The notes beneath the pieces are model-generated. The model did no database searches, had not been told where the DNA came from, and worked only from the letters and a program-made list of their open reading frames with translations. A DNA stretch of 64,000 bases from an uncultured Acidobacteriota bacterium (GTDB taxonomy: Bacteria; Acidobacteriota; Terriglobia; Terriglobales; Acidobacteriaceae): NCBI GenBank assembly GCA_963765015.1, contig CAVXVD010000073.1:1087-65086 (forward strand), read 5' to 3'. Positions 11,713-34,416 of this stretch are shown here, in pieces (position 1 is the first letter of the stretch; every line of letters starts with the position of its first letter). A program made the translations under genes and the position numbers.

Positions 11713-11731
11713 CGTTCGGCAAGATCATGTA

Positions 11732-11771
11732 GGGACAGCTGCCCTCGGCTGTCCGGTCGAGCGCAGCTCGA
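11732..11771. repeat. GC-rich double-hairpin intergenic element between convergent genes
   Basis: TGTAGGGACAGC-N8-GCTGTCC followed by TCGAGC-GCA-GCTCGA. A degenerate copy of the first part lies at 13631..13661. It probably acts as a bidirectional terminator. Confidence 0.6.
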
Positions 11772-13605: not shown

Positions 13606-13630
13606 GGCCGGAAGTCTACCACTGAGCGAA

Positions 13631-13661
13631 TGTAGAAAGAGCCGCCCTCGGTTGTCCGGTC
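13631..13661. repeat. Degenerate copy of the TGTAGGG...CCCTCGG.TGTCCGGTC element
   Basis: TGTAGAAAGAGCCGCCCTCGGTTGTCCGGTC versus TGTAGGGACAGCTGCCCTCGGCTGTCCGGTC at 11729..11759: 24 of 31 positions identical by hand count. Confidence 0.45.
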
Positions 13662-13746
13662 TACCCAAGTTTGACGGTTGTGCTTCAGCCGTAACCTACG
13701 CATGTCGTCGACAATTGTGTTAATGTAACGCCGTTTAGAGACGTCC

Positions 13747-20364: not shown

Positions 20365-20856
20365 ATGACCGTATTAGCCCGTTTTGAGCCATTTCGTGAG
20401 TTTTCCACCCTGCAGGACCGCATCAATCGCGTGTTCCGCGAGTCCTACAATGGCGCAGGCCAGGATGAGTCTCTGACCACCTCGAGTTTCGCCCCCGCCG
20501 TAGACGTCTACGAAGACGAGCATCAGGTCACATTGAAGATCGAAGTGCCCGGAATCGACGAGAAAGACATCGACGTCCAGGTGGAGAACAACACCCTCAC
20601 CGTTCACGGCGAACGCAAGATCGAGAAGGAAGAGAAGGAAGAGAACTACCGCCGCGTGGAGCGCCAGTACGGCAGCTTCACCCGCACCTTCACTCTGCCC
20701 CAGACCGTAGACACCGAGAAAGTTGCGGCGTCCTACGACAAAGGCGTCCTGAAGATCGCGCTGCCCAAGAAGGCCGAAGCGAAACCGAAGCAGATCAAGG
20801 TCACCGTCGGCAGCGAGAAGACCCTCGAAAGTAAAGGCCCCGGCAAGGCCGCGTAA
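20365..20856 (+). CDS. Hsp20/alpha-crystallin family small heat-shock protein
   Basis: 163 aa with an alpha-crystallin domain (PAVDVYEDEHQVTLKIEVPG..., ASYDKGVLKIALPKK). GGAGG RBS. Confidence 0.93.
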   Translation: MTVLARFEPFREFSTLQDRINRVFRESYNGAGQDESLTTSSFAPAVDVYEDEHQVTLKIEVPGIDEKDIDVQVENNTLTVHGERKIEKEEKEENYRRVERQYGSFTRTFTLPQTVDTEKVAASYDKGVLKIALPKKAEAKPKQIKVTVGSEKTLESKGPGKAA

Positions 20857-20866
20857 TGTTTGTGTA

Positions 20867-21016
20867 GGGGCGGACGCATTCGTCCGCCCCCGCGAAGGCG
20901 AAGCAGTGCGGTACTTGTGGAAGACCGGCGCTTCAGCGCCGCGTCTTGAGGCAAGAACGATGCGGGCCTTAGCCCCTGGAGGCCAGCGGGAGGCGGCAGA
21001 GATGCCCGCCTCCCGC
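20867..21016. repeat. Array of four GC-rich hairpin repeats in the hsp20-clpB spacer
   Basis: GGGGCGGACG-CATT-CGTCCGCCCC (20867-90), CGGCGC-TTCA-GCGCCG (20926-41), GGGC-CTTA-GCCC (20965-76) and GCGGGAGGCGG-N9-CCGCCTCCCGC (20986-21016). The first hairpin is the inverted form of the one at 26148-67 and 34316-37. Confidence 0.7.
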
Positions 21017-23780: not shown

Positions 23781-23850
23781 CACGGATCTTCACGGATTCG
23801 CACGGATAAACCCAGAAGGTGATCCGTTCGAATCCTCGGAGATCCGTAGC
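23781..23850. repeat. CACGGAT decamer-phased array forming an imperfect 70-nt palindrome
   Basis: CACGGAT at 23781, 23791 and 23801 (10-nt period), then inverted ATCCGT-type units at 23822, 23832 and 23842. It lies directly after the clpB stop. Confidence 0.75.
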
Positions 23851-24814: not shown

Positions 24815-25729
24815 ATGTGGCAAACTGGACGTATGCACTGGCTGACCCTTGGCGACTTTGAACTCAGCGTTTTTTCGGATGGTACCTACCCACTCGATGG
24901 CGGCGCGTTCTTCGGCGTCGTGCCGAAAGTGATGTGGTCGCGCAAGGTCGGGTCCGACGAAAAAAACTATGTCATGGCCGGGCTCAACTCGCTGGTTATC
25001 CGGACGGGCCAACAGACGGTCCTGGTTGAGACGGGGATAGGGAACAAGCTTTCGGAGCGGATGGTCAAGTTCTACGGGCAGCCGTCGAAGTTATTGGACA
25101 ATCTTTCGGCTGGAGGAATTGCGCCCGAAGATATCGATATCGTGATCAACTCCCATCTGCACTTCGACCATTGCGGATGGAATACCGTGCGCGACAAGAA
25201 CGGGAAGATCGTGCCGACGTTTCCCCGCGCTAAATATTATGCTCCGGAGGGGGAGTGGCAGTACGCGAGGCATCCGAGCGAGCGGGATTCCATCAGCTTT
25301 ATCCCAGAGAACTATGATCCGCTAGTGGACAGCGGGCAGATGACGCTGCTGAAGGGCGGCGAAGAGATTGTGCCGGGGATTTCGGTGGAGACGTTTCCGG
25401 GGCATACGGCGCACATGCTGGCGGTGGTTGTGCGGGGAAGTCAAAATCCCCAGTTCTCCCAACAGCGGGGAGAAGTGGGGCACCCGCCGGCTTCTTCGGT
25501 TCCGACGGCTTGCTATATCTCCGATCTGATTCCGACTGCCGCGCACATTGACCTGACCTGGGGAATGGGGTTCGATCTGTATCCGTTACAGACGATCGAA
25601 AGCAAGAAGCGGTATTATGCACGGGCGATTTCGGGGAAGTGGCTTACAGTCTTCACGCACGATCCCAAGGTGCCATGGGCGTATGTGGAGAGAGATGGGT
25701 TGGGAAAGATGGTGGCTCGCGAGGTCTAG
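24815..25729 (+). CDS. MBL-fold metallo-hydrolase
   Basis: HxHxDH motif (NSHLHFDHCGWN), later GHTAHM and DLIPTAAH. Contains an extra roughly 20-codon palindromic module at about 25439-25507. ATG 24833 is an alternative start. Confidence 0.85.
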   Translation: MWQTGRMHWLTLGDFELSVFSDGTYPLDGGAFFGVVPKVMWSRKVGSDEKNYVMAGLNSLVIRTGQQTVLVETGIGNKLSERMVKFYGQPSKLLDNLSAGGIAPEDIDIVINSHLHFDHCGWNTVRDKNGKIVPTFPRAKYYAPEGEWQYARHPSERDSISFIPENYDPLVDSGQMTLLKGGEEIVPGISVETFPGHTAHMLAVVVRGSQNPQFSQQRGEVGHPPASSVPTACYISDLIPTAAHIDLTWGMGFDLYPLQTIESKKRYYARAISGKWLTVFTHDPKVPWAYVERDGLGKMVAREV

Positions 25730-25776: not shown

Positions 25777-26940
25777 CTACGCTCGCGTATCCGAAGCAAT
25801 CGCCGTGCCACATAAGCGGGGCTCGAAGAAGCCCTCCACTCGAGTGAGGATGTCGGGTGCGCTTTTGGACTCGTAAATCTCTTTGCGCAAGTGGGCGCCT
25901 CCGGGAACTCCGTGGGTGAACCATGAGGCGAACTGCTTCATTTTGCCGACAGCGTCGGGGAGTTCTTCTTCGATCAGCATCTGGAAGTAGGTGCGGATCA
26001 TCTGATAGCGGTCGGCTTCGGAAGGGTGGTCGTAGAGCGAAGCTGATGCGGAGACAGCCATCCTGGCCTGTTCCTCGGGCCGAATGCCCGATTCCTGTTC
26101 GGCGAGCTGACTCTCGAAGTCAAACACAGTCGAGCTTTGCTCGACACGGCGGACGAATGCGTCCGCCCCTCCTCGAGCATCGATGGTGTTCCCATCGCGT
26201 ACCTGTGCGCAGTACTGTTCGATCTGGCGGAAGATCCACGGATTCGATGGCGCCATGCGCCCGATCATCACTGCATCACAGCCGGTCTGGGTGACCATGG
26301 CGCAGGCGTTTTCTGGAGTACGGATATCGCCGTTGCCGATCACGGGAATCTTGACGGCATCTTTCACAGCGGCAATCCACTCCCAGCGAGCGTTGCCGCT
26401 GTAGCCCATTTCGCGGGTGCGAGCATGGAGCGCGACCGCTGCAAGGCCGCAGGATTCTGCCAGGCGCGCCAGTTCGACACAGACGATTTCTTCATCATTC
26501 CATCCGGCGCGAAATTTTACCGTGAAGGGAATCTTCACGGCGGCGCGCACCGATTCGAAAATCTTGCCGATCGCGGGAAGATCTCGGAGGAGGCCTGAGC
26601 CTCCGTTGCACTTAACGACCTTCTTGGCGGGGCATCCTAGATTCAGGTCGACCAGATCGAAGCCCAGGCCTTCGACCATGCGCGCGGCCTCGGCCATGAC
26701 GCTGGGATCGCTGCCGAAAAGCTGGGCCGAGATGGGGTGCTCATCTTCGTAGAAATGCAGATAGCGCTTGGCCTTCTGATCTTTCTTACGAAGGACGCCG
26801 TCAGCCGAGGTGAACTCAGTCATGATGAGACCGCATCCGCCGAGGTTACGGATGAAACGGCGGAAGACGGTGTCGGTGACGCCAGCCATGGGAGCGAGCA
26901 CAGTGGCGGGGCATATGGTAACGCTGCCGATCTGCAGCAT
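25777..26940 (-). CDS. dus: tRNA-dihydrouridine synthase (DusB-like) carrying an in-frame repeat insertion
   Basis: VLAPMAGVTDTVFR, VDLNLGCPAKKV and PWIFRQIEQY motifs. Start at MLQIGSV (ATG 26940). About 50 extra codons lie between the catalytic barrel and the C-terminal helical domain. Confidence 0.88.
   Translation of the reverse strand: MLQIGSVTICPATVLAPMAGVTDTVFRRFIRNLGGCGLIMTEFTSADGVLRKKDQKAKRYLHFYEDEHPISAQLFGSDPSVMAEAARMVEGLGFDLVDLNLGCPAKKVVKCNGGSGLLRDLPAIGKIFESVRAAVKIPFTVKFRAGWNDEEIVCVELARLAESCGLAAVALHARTREMGYSGNARWEWIAAVKDAVKIPVIGNGDIRTPENACAMVTQTGCDAVMIGRMAPSNPWIFRQIEQYCAQVRDGNTIDARGGADAFVRRVEQSSTVFDFESQLAEQESGIRPEEQARMAVSASASLYDHPSEADRYQMIRTYFQMLIEEELPDAVGKMKQFASWFTHGVPGGAHLRKEIYESKSAPDILTRVEGFFEPRLCGTAIASDTRA
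26103..26185. repeat. Multi-hairpin palindromic element inside the dus coding sequence
   Basis: GTCGAGC-TTT-GCTCGAC (26129-45) plus GGCGGACG-AATG-CGTCCGCC (26148-67). Positions 26120..26185 align to 34289..34352 with 57 of 66 columns identical (hand count). Confidence 0.75.
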
Positions 26941-27090
26941 ATTGGGGACTGGGCGCAGTAGATCTGGCCCGCGGGCGGTTGTGCCTGCGCTTTTCCCATT
27001 CGAGGTGTCCCAGAATTTGCGCATGGTTGAGAAAAACCTTCACCACCGAGGGCACACAGAGGAATCGTGTGCCCATTCTAAGCGACATTC

Positions 27091-32541: not shown

Positions 32542-34260
32542 ATGTTGGACCATCTTGAGTTCCTCCTGGGGGAGAGCATGCCTGAACCGGAACGGGCCCC
32601 ATCCACCACCATTGCACAATCCGCGTCGACGGAAGAGATACAACTCTCTGCTCCGAAACCGGTCGAATGCGGCGAAGGGCCGCCGGAATCCGCCGAAGGC
32701 TCGGAGACTTCCTGGAAGTTGAAAGTTCCGCTGCTGGCAACTCTGGGCGCCACCTTCGGATTCCTGATCGGCTCGGGCCTCTATGGAGAAATCCATCCCA
32801 AACCGGGGGAAGAGCAGAACCTGCGGGAGTTCCTTACGATCGCGGTGATTATTGGCACGGCAGCATACTGGTTCTTTGATCCCATTATGGAGTTGGTGCA
32901 CAGCTGGTTAGGCGCTCCAATCCCGAAGTTTCCGAAAGAGCGCCGCGTTGTTGCCAGTTTAGCTGTCGTCATCGCCACCTTGGCTATTTCGATCCTTCAC
33001 CATTCACTGGGTGAAACTCTGACCCGATTTCATGCCAAAGGATTTTTCACTTTGCTGGTCTTGTTCGCTGGCACGGCAGGAACCACGACCTATTACTGGA
33101 TACGCGGGGCACACAAGCAACCCGCTCGTTCGGCTGCTTATGGTGCCTGGACTGGAGCCATCGCCGGACCTGTGGCCGGATTTCTACTCGTGTTCTTGGC
33201 TCTGCAGGACAAGACAGTGGCTAGTCAGGTGTCGTCTTCTCAAGCCGCACTCTTCGCCAAGGGCATGGGAATGTGGACGTTTCTCACGTTTGTGCCGGGG
33301 TTTCTGGGCGGCATGGCGATTGAGAAAGCATGGGATCCCAAGTCTCCCAGCCGAGGCATTCTTGCCTGTTTAGGAGCGTTCTCGGTCATATTCTTGTTGT
33401 GTGCATGGCTGGTGGGAATCGAGTTTATCCAGTACCGAGACATGATCTGGGCCATCGCACTGCAGGGGTTGGCGCAGAGTGTCGGCTGGGGCATGGGCCT
33501 TTATCTGCAACGCGAGGCCTGCGACCCGATCTTCAGCGGAGCTCGTGCCCACGCGACTTTGCTGCCGAAGAGGGCCAGCAATCTCGACAGACCAGCAGTA
33601 GTTCCGATCGATACGCGGCGCCCGGTCAGGATCTCGGCGCAGGTTCCCGAGAATCCGCAGGGCCCTCAAGTTTCGCCCCAAGTTTTGCTGCTGCAACCCA
33701 AAGGCAGCCGTGCTTGGGCGTTGGCCGTTTTGGTTCTCGCCTTGGCGTTTGGAGGTTGGGGATACACAACTGGATTTTTCAGGACCGATCCGGAGATTGT
33801 TTCGGAGATCGAAGGGAAATTCGAGCAGGATTCGGGCCTCCACGGGCGAGCGCTGTCTGTCAGGAGCGCGGAGCACATCGTTACGATTGCGGGAATGGTC
33901 GATAATCCCGTGCAACACACCGCCGCTACGCAGCAGGCCTCCGGTGTGCGCGGTATACGACAGTTGGTCGACCAGATTCAGGTTGCTCCGCCAGCCCCTC
34001 CGAAGGCCAAGATCGTAGTTGCTCCGCAACCGGCACAACCCAACACTGTCAACGCGACGCTTTCGATATTCAAGTCGGCTGCGTCGGGTCAAGCTCATCC
34101 GAACCAAGGTCATCCGAACCAGGCTCGTCCGATCAACGCGCAGAAACGTGGTGCGGCCCCCCCCGCGCCGGAAGGGCAGAGCCAAAAAAAGCCGGGCTTG
34201 TTGCACCGTCTCTTCGGGAAAAAAGATAAGAAAGACACGCAAAACAACGCGCCGCATTAG
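32542..34260 (+). CDS. Multi-pass membrane protein with C-terminal BON domain
   Basis: 572-aa ORF with about 8 hydrophobic helices. BON-like segment (LHGRALSVRSAEHIVTIAGMVDNPVQHTAATQQASGVRGIRQLVDQIQV) and a basic low-complexity tail. Start uncertain. Confidence 0.6.
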   Translation: MLDHLEFLLGESMPEPERAPSTTIAQSASTEEIQLSAPKPVECGEGPPESAEGSETSWKLKVPLLATLGATFGFLIGSGLYGEIHPKPGEEQNLREFLTIAVIIGTAAYWFFDPIMELVHSWLGAPIPKFPKERRVVASLAVVIATLAISILHHSLGETLTRFHAKGFFTLLVLFAGTAGTTTYYWIRGAHKQPARSAAYGAWTGAIAGPVAGFLLVFLALQDKTVASQVSSSQAALFAKGMGMWTFLTFVPGFLGGMAIEKAWDPKSPSRGILACLGAFSVIFLLCAWLVGIEFIQYRDMIWAIALQGLAQSVGWGMGLYLQREACDPIFSGARAHATLLPKRASNLDRPAVVPIDTRRPVRISAQVPENPQGPQVSPQVLLLQPKGSRAWALAVLVLALAFGGWGYTTGFFRTDPEIVSEIEGKFEQDSGLHGRALSVRSAEHIVTIAGMVDNPVQHTAATQQASGVRGIRQLVDQIQVAPPAPPKAKIVVAPQPAQPNTVNATLSIFKSAASGQAHPNQGHPNQARPINAQKRGAAPPAPEGQSQKKPGLLHRLFGKKDKKDTQNNAPH

Positions 34261-34268
34261 TCCGCGGA

Positions 34269-34359
34269 CGAGCTGAAAAATGGTGACATCAAAGACAGTC
34301 GAGCGTTGCTCGACTGGGCGGACGAATGCGTCCGCCCGCACGAGCATCGATGCTGCTCG
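34269..34359. repeat. Intergenic triple-hairpin element (twin of the dus insertion)
   Basis: GTCGAGC-GTT-GCTCGAC (34298-314), GGGCGGACG-AATG-CGTCCGCCC (34316-37) and CGAGCA-N7-TGCTCG (34341-59, containing the perfect palindrome GCATCGATGC). Confidence 0.75.
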
Positions 34360-34416
34360 CATGCGAACTGGCCGTGCGGACGAAGACTGCGCAGGCTGTA
34401 GTAACATCTTCCCGTC

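Follow-up and report, generated by a model that had tools for sequence, protein, structure and literature searches.

A GTAG-Family REP within the Interdomain Linker of DusB from an Uncultured Acidobacteriota Bacterium

Results

The dusB Gene and Its Extra Segment

The 64,000-nucleotide stretch of DNA analyzed here (the window; contig CAVXVD010000073.1 of an uncultured Acidobacteriota bacterium) was found to carry a dusB gene whose reading frame holds a short palindromic repeat. The gene is the open reading frame (ORF) at 25777..27024 of the reverse strand in the ORF list of the window, and it encodes a protein of 415 amino acids. The assignment as DusB, a tRNA-dihydrouridine synthase, is based on a score of 316.9 bits versus a cutoff of 293.3 for TIGR00737 (an NCBIfam equivalog), and the Pfam Dus family is matched with E = 4e-77. 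The closest match in the PDB is DusB from Escherichia coli (6ei9, E = 2e-55), and the TIM barrel and the C-terminal helical domain both align to Dus structures from the PDB.

An earlier reading of the sequence, made without database searches (the sequence-only reading), had reported that the gene contains a segment with no counterpart in E. coli DusB, and the structural alignments bear this out. The segment that it quoted, VRDGNTIDARGGADAFVRRVEQSSTVFDFESQLAEQESGIRPEEQARMAVSASASL, is present in the DusB ORF. The HMMER alignment to 6ei9 ends at query residue 272. With 1vhn from Thermotoga maritima, query residue 272 is aligned to chain residue 230, and the alignment resumes at query residue 330 with chain residue 234, leaving just three chain residues in between. 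The window protein has ~55 extra residues (about 52−57 codons) at the junction of the TIM barrel and the helical domain. The TIM barrel ends with NPWIFRQIEQYCA, YDHPSEADRY belongs to the helix that comes first in the helical domain, and the peptides across the two junctions of the insert read QYCAQVRDGNTIDAR and SASASLYDHPSEADR. By codon count, the insert covers 26035..26205, compared with 26020..26195 in the sequence-only reading (Table 1).

In an AlphaFold model, which was used only for the secondary structure near the insert, residues 279−327 are predicted to be coil with a predicted local distance difference test (pLDDT) score below 50, and the means for blocks of 10 residues are 22−34 over residues 281−320. 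Helices are found on either side at residues 264−276 and 336−352. The model, made from a shallow alignment of 44 orthologs, each sharing 80% or more identity with the query, predicts that the insert is a disordered linker. The suggestion that the extra segment forms a loop is matched by this coil between helices, to the extent that a poor model (mean pLDDT of 56.7) can support it.

A Family of GTAG-Headed REPs

The core of the insert had been described as a copy of an intergenic element in the same orientation, and alignment confirmed this. Positions 26120−26168 and 34289−34337 are identical at 45 of 49 nucleotides (92%) in equal orientation, and the similarity runs on past a 2-nucleotide indel to ~26185 and 34352. 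The perfect hairpins reported for both copies, a third hairpin in the intergenic copy, and an inverted 20-mer were all recovered. The hairpin GTCGAGC-N3-GCTCGAC is perfect at 26129 and at 34298, CGAGCA-N7-TGCTCG folds in the intergenic copy at 34289..34352, and the 20-mer GGCGGACGAATGCGTCCGCC occurs exactly at 26148 and 34317 and inverted at 20869, relative to a chance expectation of 0.04 matches. When folded as single-stranded DNA, the dus and intergenic elements gave z = −5.2 and −5.3, respectively, versus shuffled sequences.

The 20-mer was searched for, as an exact match, in a single representative genome of each species, and the resulting counts are lower bounds. The repeat extends well beyond the two long copies in the window: at least 136 copies of the exact core were found in at least 118 loci from over 80 genomes. 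Among the matches listed, the hosts are nearly all metagenome-assembled genomes (MAGs) of Terriglobales, Acidobacteriaceae, or “Candidatus Sulfotelmatobacter”, and some of these MAGs have several copies on one contig. The family is mainly extragenic, with ~127 of 139 sampled copies outside verified genes.

Position weights for the 136 copies define a conserved unit of ~33 nucleotides that reads head-first as (gc)TCacGTAGG followed by a 20-nucleotide hairpin. The head is (GC)TCACGTAGG, and the hairpin is GGCGGACGCATTCGTCCGCC, with an 8-bp stem and a 4-nucleotide loop. The head is kept beside the hairpin as (C/G/T)CTAC in at least 105 of 132 copies, and an inverted partner with the heads facing outward lies within 200 nucleotides of 54 of the 132 copies (41%). 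The mode of the partner spacing is 20−23 nucleotides, and other pairs are 33−100 nucleotides apart. A variable GC-rich second hairpin (hp2) is located on the side of the unit opposite the head. In a second subfamily (B), which is identical to the first (A) in its head, hairpin length, and register, the unit reads GT(A/G)GGGACAGCCGCC-loop-GGCTGTCC, and hp2 in the form GTCGAGC-NNN-GCTCGAC usually comes next. The repeat in dusB belongs to a family of GTAG-headed repetitive extragenic palindromic (REP) sequences. The GTAG head marks REPs that are associated with REP-associated tyrosine transposases (RAYTs) (PMC3733652, PMC2817692), and it is this head that the family unit carries.

The exact 20-mer was found outside of the Acidobacteriota, among the matches listed, only in a Verrucomicrobiae MAG (locus L026) and an Oscillospiraceae MAG (L056), in both cases without a GTAG head. 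The hairpin in L026 is followed by a run of T and resembles an intrinsic terminator. These two hairpins are probably chance or convergent occurrences outside of the family.

The abundance of the family bears on whether the DusB segment could instead be a genuine lineage-specific part of the protein that resembles the intergenic repeats by chance or was their seed. The segment is in-frame within a conserved housekeeping gene, as expected for such a part, but this explanation is extremely improbable given that the 20-mer occurs at least 136 times in over 80 genomes with ~90% of the copies outside genes, that the GTAG head of the family is missing from the window dus copy, and that the flanks of the intergenic copies show no similarity to dus. 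As described below, close relatives do not have the segment, and its peptide modules match the translations of both repeat strands.

The Repeat within dusB of the Window

Using nhmmer with the family profiles, three A-type and two B-type REP copies were located in the 64-kb window (Table 1). The head of the dus copy reads GGAGG where the family has GTAGG, and the unit encodes ARGGADAFVRR. The hp2 module, which in other genomes normally comes after B-type REPs, has the same register in dus as in the B-type unit of the window and in the dus inserts of loci L002 and L034. A decayed right arm was identified by tblastn with the consensus peptide of B-hp2-B′ inserts (64.7% identity over 34 amino acids, E = 2.9e-8), and this arm, at 26047..26097, was missed by the nucleotide profile in nhmmer. 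The dus insert of the window consists of A-hp2 and, after it, a B′ arm that has decayed. Because the GTAG head has been lost and the partner arm has decayed, the window copy is probably an immobile relic.

The DusB Linker among Orthologs

The segment is absent from the Dus homologs in the PDB and from representatives of other phyla with 40−49% identity and lengths of 320−345 amino acids. Relatives within the Terriglobales at 70−79% identity that have no insert read QY(T/L)ATG(S/R)YDxPT at this site (e.g., QYTATGSYDKP). Since the outgroups are free of the insert, the DusB segment is a derived insertion, as the sequence-only reading had proposed; no homologous segment was found in the PDB homologs or the 40−49%-identity representatives from unrelated phyla. 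Empty-site alleles were also found among close orthologs that otherwise bear inserts, in loci L171 (QYCASGSYDH) and L186.

The best 120 protein matches (74−100% identical) all carry an insert that is hypervariable and modular, although the match list favors insert-bearing sequences and intact genes. At least 41 residues separate QY from P(S/T)ExDRY in these proteins, where an empty-site allele would have 8. The peptide modules were found to be translations of A, B, and C REPs in both orientations. The A hairpin is read head-first as VGADAFVRP and in the opposite orientation as PDE(G/C)VRGY, the B hairpin is read as VGTAALGCP and DGQPRAAVPT (one per orientation), hp2 is read as VE(R/Q)SST, and a third hairpin type (C), intergenic in L079, is read as GTGAFARP. 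The variable residue in GTAA[L/P/F/I]GCP matches the loops CCCT, CCCC, CCTT, and CCAT of intergenic B copies, and the intergenic B-type copy of the window at 11726..11771 reads VGTAALGCPVERSS in one frame, which is the peptide of many DusB orthologs. Most dus orthologs carry REP doublets. Among the 120 best matches, at least 45 have the architecture B-hp2-B′ and at least 22 have A-hp2-A′; triples and the two mixed forms were found as well. When the arms are mixed, the type of the spacer follows the right arm, which places the switch point at the shared hp2.

At the DNA level, the set consisted of 80 metagenome loci together with the window, L002, L034, and L073, and the linker was measured in 82 orthologous loci. 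The reading frame is kept in 80 of the 80 metagenome loci, in the window, and in L002, L034, and L073, which agrees with the earlier statement that the dus frame is preserved across the insertion. The linker has 0−104 extra residues (median of 45.5) and more than 10 in 77 of the 82 loci. A repeat-derived insert is present in 75 of the 80 metagenome loci, and the remaining five have 10 or fewer extra residues. Over these loci, the linker contains single arms, half hairpins, doublets, and stacks from at least five hairpin families. The further families are D1/D2 (REGHDFSRA.. / ..GTAEAVPFP), E (CHPEEP..), and C′ (GPGLRPG); the D1 and D2 hairpins are GGGCACGACTTCAGTCGTGCC and GGCACGGCTGAAGCCGTGCC, which encode REGHDFSRA and GTAEAVPFP, respectively. 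Lineages with unrelated modules in the linker include L141, L151, L172, L175, L176, L188, L190, and others, and the D hairpins occur also elsewhere in the sampled loci.

These numbers leave a negligible chance that the insert is an artifact of assembly or sequencing, such as a repeat-induced chimera. The source of the window is a metagenome assembly, and some related Dus sequences are visibly frameshifted, but such errors are not expected to place inserts, all of them in-frame, at the identical position in as many as 120 independent protein clusters and in 75 of the 80 metagenome loci, which come from many projects. Five Dus cluster representatives (P0121, P0124, P0150, P0202, and P0212) show a switch of frame at or just past the linker, and these switches may reflect errors in the sequencing of long-read MAGs or, alternatively, real pseudogenes that were formed by out-of-frame repeat changes.

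A blastn comparison of the dus inserts with ~1 Mb of loci demonstrated that the hairpin modules alone recur and that the spacers are unrepeated; the spacers of intergenic doublets are likewise dissimilar. No target-site duplication was found on comparing the empty (L171 and L186) and filled dus sites. The REP arm types gave no signal relative to the similarity of the protein core, either on a neighbor-joining tree of the core or in identity bins. The number of arm-type changes on the core tree is 48 versus 49.5 in random shuffles, and the core, which is 94% identical on average, is too uniform to separate rapid turnover from low resolution.

Selection on the Insert

For ortholog pairs with alignable inserts, the ratio of nonsynonymous to synonymous substitution rates (dN/dS) was determined to be 0.63 for the insert and 0.03 for the flanking core, values for which the direction is firmer than the numbers. 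The dN of the insert is ~7-fold that of the core, and the dS of the insert (0.20) is lower than that of the core (0.53). The ratio of 0.63 indicates that the insert peptide is nearly unconstrained, and the lower dS indicates that its nucleotide sequence is somewhat conserved or homogenized. The helical domain past the insert is strongly constrained. Because this downstream domain is constrained and the frame is kept in all of the loci, translation is expected to run through the insert, and DusB is presumably made with the extra residues in place.

In-Frame Copies in Other Genes

The likeness in behavior to Rickettsia palindromic elements that was noted in the sequence-only reading extends beyond dus, as ~9% of the sampled copies are in-frame in verified genes. 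Of the 139 exact-core copies, 12 fall in-frame within long ORFs whose Pfam domains match both before and after the repeat. The host is dus for three of them (L002, L034, and L073), and there are nine other hosts, namely, a hydantoinase, an FAD-oxidase/Fe-S protein, MnmE, RsmG, an Amidase_3 protein, an S9 peptidase, MetH, a ribonucleotide reductase, and IspE. These copies are mostly located between Pfam domains. In the FAD-oxidase/Fe-S fusion (L042:2039-5269, forward strand), the frame is kept through REPs at two different places: one, read as THVGTDAFVRPG, separates the FAD domains, and the other, read as GGRIRPP, separates the Fe-S from the CCG domains. None of the six frames of the 20-nucleotide hairpin contains a stop codon, and a single frame is closed by the GTAG head, which makes in-frame landing easy for this family.

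RAYT Transposase in Relatives

In four MAGs (L031, L038, L041, and L114), two REP doublets ~660−710 bp apart flank a conserved gene of ~165 amino acids, which was located by examining the ORFs between paired REPs. The product matches NCBIfam NF047646 (“REP-associated tyrosine transposase”) with E = 6e-22 and 78.1 bits, just below the cutoff of 80, and it exceeds the threshold for Pfam Y1_Tnp (25.6 versus 23 bits). Its closest solved relative is TnpA-REP from E. coli (4er8), to which DHVHLIL was aligned as the HUH motif and YVLQNPVRKGL as the tyrosine helix. A six-frame scan for the RAYT motif NH[V..]H gave no match because the RAYT proteins of the relatives read DHVH. By analogy with these relatives, we infer that the family REPs in the genome of the window would have been mobilized by a RAYT.

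The REP-flanked gene is a Y1/HUH transposase, and this argues against a MITE (miniature inverted-repeat transposable element), or another transposon bounded by terminal inverted repeats (TIRs), that is moved by a DDE transposase. The composite structure with multiple hairpins would suit a MITE, and the longer D- and E-type composite inserts in some dus orthologs may be MITE-like. However, the unit is only ~33 nucleotides long with a GTAG head, no TIRs beyond the hairpins themselves were found in the position weights of the conserved unit, and the empty and filled dus sites differ by no target-site duplication. A MITE origin is very unlikely, and the dus element was rejected as a MITE on the basis of the missing TIRs and target-site duplication.

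Discussion

The insert in DusB is very probably a doublet of GTAG REPs, a disordered passenger loop carried by an interdomain linker that tolerates such additions. The ~55 extra residues would be the translated remains of this doublet: an A-type hairpin with hp2, a spacer, and a decayed inverted arm. As non-autonomous elements, the family REPs would depend on a RAYT of the HUH/Y1 type that recognizes the GTAG head and the hairpin on single-stranded DNA and then cuts and joins, in analogy to TnpA-REP from E. coli (PMC3479197). Most copies would land between genes, and copies that hit a gene would persist only in proteins that can accommodate a floppy loop, and only as long as the reading frame is left open. 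The DusB junction would be such a permissive site, and in this clade it would now serve as a landing pad for repeats. The linkers of different lineages contain A, A2, B, C, D, or E hairpins, present singly, as doublets, or stacked, with arms swapped around the shared hp2 and partial deletions, and the frame and both flanking domains are still under strong purifying selection. The doublet may have landed in the linker or nested there. We infer this order of events at the DusB site. The diversity of the linker may be due to independent insertions, nesting beside hairpins that were already present, or gene conversion at the head and the hp2 module that the copies have in common. The best-supported view of the insert peptide is that of a passenger, a disordered linker rather than a functional domain.

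Several points weigh against the assignment as a passenger REP doublet. Nearly all of the top-match orthologs retain some insert, and the linker could now be needed. Whole doublets as mobile units, in the style of REPINs (see below), were considered and rejected, as the spacers are unrepeated. The AlphaFold model is of low quality, and the ortholog pairs used for dN/dS are non-independent and were picked for alignable inserts. The flanked transposase gene falls short of the NF047646 cutoff. The 64-kb window yielded no RAYT gene, so that it is other genomes that provide the link to a transposase.

The retention of inserts also raises the possibility that a linker of selfish origin has been exapted and is now functionally required, either as a flexible tether that alters how the Dus domains grip tRNA or as a hairpin in the mRNA or DNA, causing a pause in translation or transcription after one domain and before the next. 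The more than 10 extra residues kept in 77 of 82 loci, the 41 or more residues between QY and P(S/T)ExDRY in 120 of 120 best protein matches, and the siting of other in-frame REPs mostly at domain boundaries would fit a required linker, and the dS of 0.20 for the insert versus 0.53 for the core suggests constraint at the nucleotide level. However, a low dS is also expected from homogenization of REPs and from the choice of pairs. Empty or near-empty alleles (L171, L186, L170, and L189) occur in otherwise conserved orthologs, and unrelated repeat families interchange over a range of 0−104 residues with a dN/dS of 0.63. Because of these empty alleles, the free swapping of unrelated families, and the high dN/dS, an acquired function is unlikely.

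Beyond tolerating repeats passively, the DusB linker could also exchange them actively, with the current REP population of the genome overwriting the hairpins in place time and again, and this we consider rather unlikely. The overwriting would be accomplished by RAYT-catalyzed replacement of hairpins or by gene conversion for which the GTAG head and hp2, both shared, serve as anchors. If this were the case, a segment of a housekeeping protein would evolve in concert with the selfish-DNA pool of the genome, and the retained hairpins might have a function at the level of RNA or DNA within the gene.

For the passenger REP doublet, the significance lies in several areas. The results add a REP/RAYT system to the Terriglobales, an order of Acidobacteriota abundant in soil and peat. 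The linker constitutes a natural experiment in which 0 to ~100 repeat-encoded residues from at least five families are combined with an enzyme core that is ~94% identical, and it shows the capacity of protein linkers for junk and offers a handle on REP turnover. There is a coding load as well, with ~9% of the sampled REP copies borne in-frame by conserved housekeeping enzymes. For annotation, the peptides VGADAFVRP, PDEGVRGY, VGTAALGCPVERSST, and DGQPRAAVPT flag REP-derived segments, which inflate the apparent novelty of proteins in acidobacterial MAGs.

Rickettsia palindromic elements (RPEs) reportedly interrupt housekeeping genes without loss of frame, and the proteins tolerate them as additional peptides at the surface (work of Ogata et al. 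from 2000/2002). RPE insertions are generally stable at orthologous sites. The dus element is like an RPE in being a palindromic repeat that is in-frame in a housekeeping gene. It is unlike RPEs in its GTAG tag, its host phylum, the Acidobacteriota, its size (RPE-1 is longer), the absence of any sequence relation, and the hypervariable site that is filled by multiple families. RPEs have a CGTC tag and no dedicated transposase (PMC3733652). The sequence-only reading had likened the behavior of the insertion to that of RPEs; the element itself belongs to the GTAG-type REPs, has a RAYT in relatives, and is unrelated to RPEs. The dus element was rejected as an RPE because the tag and the lineage differ, and the in-frame behavior alone is common to both.

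The bacterial interspersed mosaic elements (BIMEs) of E. coli lie between genes and are bound by IHF, gyrase, and Pol I. The mixing and matching of A and B arms around a shared hp2 is similar to BIME mosaics, in which REP subtypes in alternating orientation are combined with linker motifs (PMC2817692). In REPINs, the whole doublet replicates with its spacer, and these are described as extragenic (Bertels and Rainey 2011, PMC3116915; Nunvar et al. 2010, PMC2817692). The Terriglobales family resembles the REPIN/RAYT systems of Pseudomonas and Enterobacteria in its inverted doublets (41% of the copies) and its repeat-flanked transposase gene, and it differs in that the spacers vary from copy to copy.

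Intragenic GTAG and CGTC REPs that lie wholly inside ORFs of known proteins have already been described (Di Nocera, De Gregorio, and Rocco 2013, BMC Genomics 14:522; PMC3733652). They occur as singles, dimers of 20−30 amino acids, and clusters of 43−82 amino acids, with the highest numbers in Opitutus terrae and Rickettsia conorii, and their siting in linkers or loops was also suggested there. For the Acidobacteria, the same study lists only TIR-flanked tyrosine transposases and no REP families. The repeats presented here are like those GTAG REPs in having a short GC-rich stem-loop, a GTAG head, a mostly extragenic location, head-outward dimers, a link to RAYTs, and a minority of copies in ORFs. 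The dus host and the filling of a single site by many repeat families across a clade, both in the Terriglobales, are unlike that report. Full-text literature searches for REP/RAYT in Terriglobia or Sulfotelmatobacter, and for dus as a REP host, returned nothing. The sequence-only reading had named no characterization of such a repeat for this lineage, and this holds for the lineage only, since intragenic in-frame GTAG REPs have been published for other phyla (PMC3733652). In-frame REPs are already known; what a specialist would find unusual is that, across a clade, one linker is used again and again by multiple families and at variable length.

Other Features of the Window

Table 1. Coordinates of the DusB Insert and of the REP Copies in the Window
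Feature	Position	Strand	Evidence
In-frame insert, codons 274−330	26035..26205	−	structure-alignment gap, empty-site alleles and outgroups, AlphaFold
A-type REP unit in dus, 20-nt hairpin GGCGGACGCATTCGTCCGCC at 26148−26167, degenerate head and tail	26145..26181	−	exact 20-mer; nhmmer E = 1.9e-9
hp2 in dus, GTCGAGC-AAA-GCTCGAC, encodes VEQSST	26129..26145	−	hairpin match
Decayed right arm, remnant of inverted B-type REP: ESGIRPEEQARMAVSAS versus ortholog consensus ESGLRPDGQPRAAVPTS	26047..26097	−	tblastn
Intergenic composite of hp2, A-type REP, and tail, degenerate head GTGCG	34289..34352	−	nhmmer E = 1.4e-7
A-type REP, intact GTAGG head	20856..20890	+	nhmmer E = 5.7e-12
Intergenic B-type REP with hp2, ATGTAGGGACAGCTGCCCTCGGCTGTCC-G-GTCGAGCGCAGCTCGAG	11726..11771	+	nhmmer E = 9.7e-14
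Decayed B-type REP	13630..13675	+	nhmmer E = 1e-5

The A-type REP with the intact head abuts the stop codon (20854−20856) of hsp20 (20365..20856), with clpB downstream, and this location 3′ of a gene is typical for REPs. The B-type copy at 11726−11771 is located downstream from a GatB/YqeY-like ORF, and the decayed B copy at 13630−13675 lies ~1.9 kb beyond it. The intergenic composite starts 29 nucleotides past the stop of the ORF at 32542..34260. An ORF of 345 amino acids (33370..34407, reverse strand) is antisense to this 572-amino acid gene and crosses the intergenic REP, which it reads as RADAFVRPVEQRSTVFDV. It looks like a spurious ORF of high-GC DNA, and spurious ORFs of this kind would seed false REP-peptide “proteins” in databases. 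No known RNAs or tRNAs were found in the window with an Rfam scan at gathering thresholds and a tRNA scan.

The neighboring gene for an MBL-fold hydrolase (24815..25729, forward strand) has ~19 extra residues (amino acids 204−230) relative to PDB 3esh, and these hold an imperfect hairpin, CCCCAGTTCTCCC-N7-GGGAGAAGTGGGG, at 25424−25507 of the window. A second copy of this hairpin was not found in ~1 Mb of related loci, and its fold gave z = −1.9. As a single copy with this z value, it was not established as a second in-frame repeat insertion. Another short repeat, composed of CACGGAT units (CACGGATTCGCACGGATAAACC), is found in both orientations at 23791−23819, 24314−24342, and 38961−38983, and a CACGGAT-like motif is located ~80 nucleotides upstream of dus in L137, L138, L140, L148, L151, and L164.

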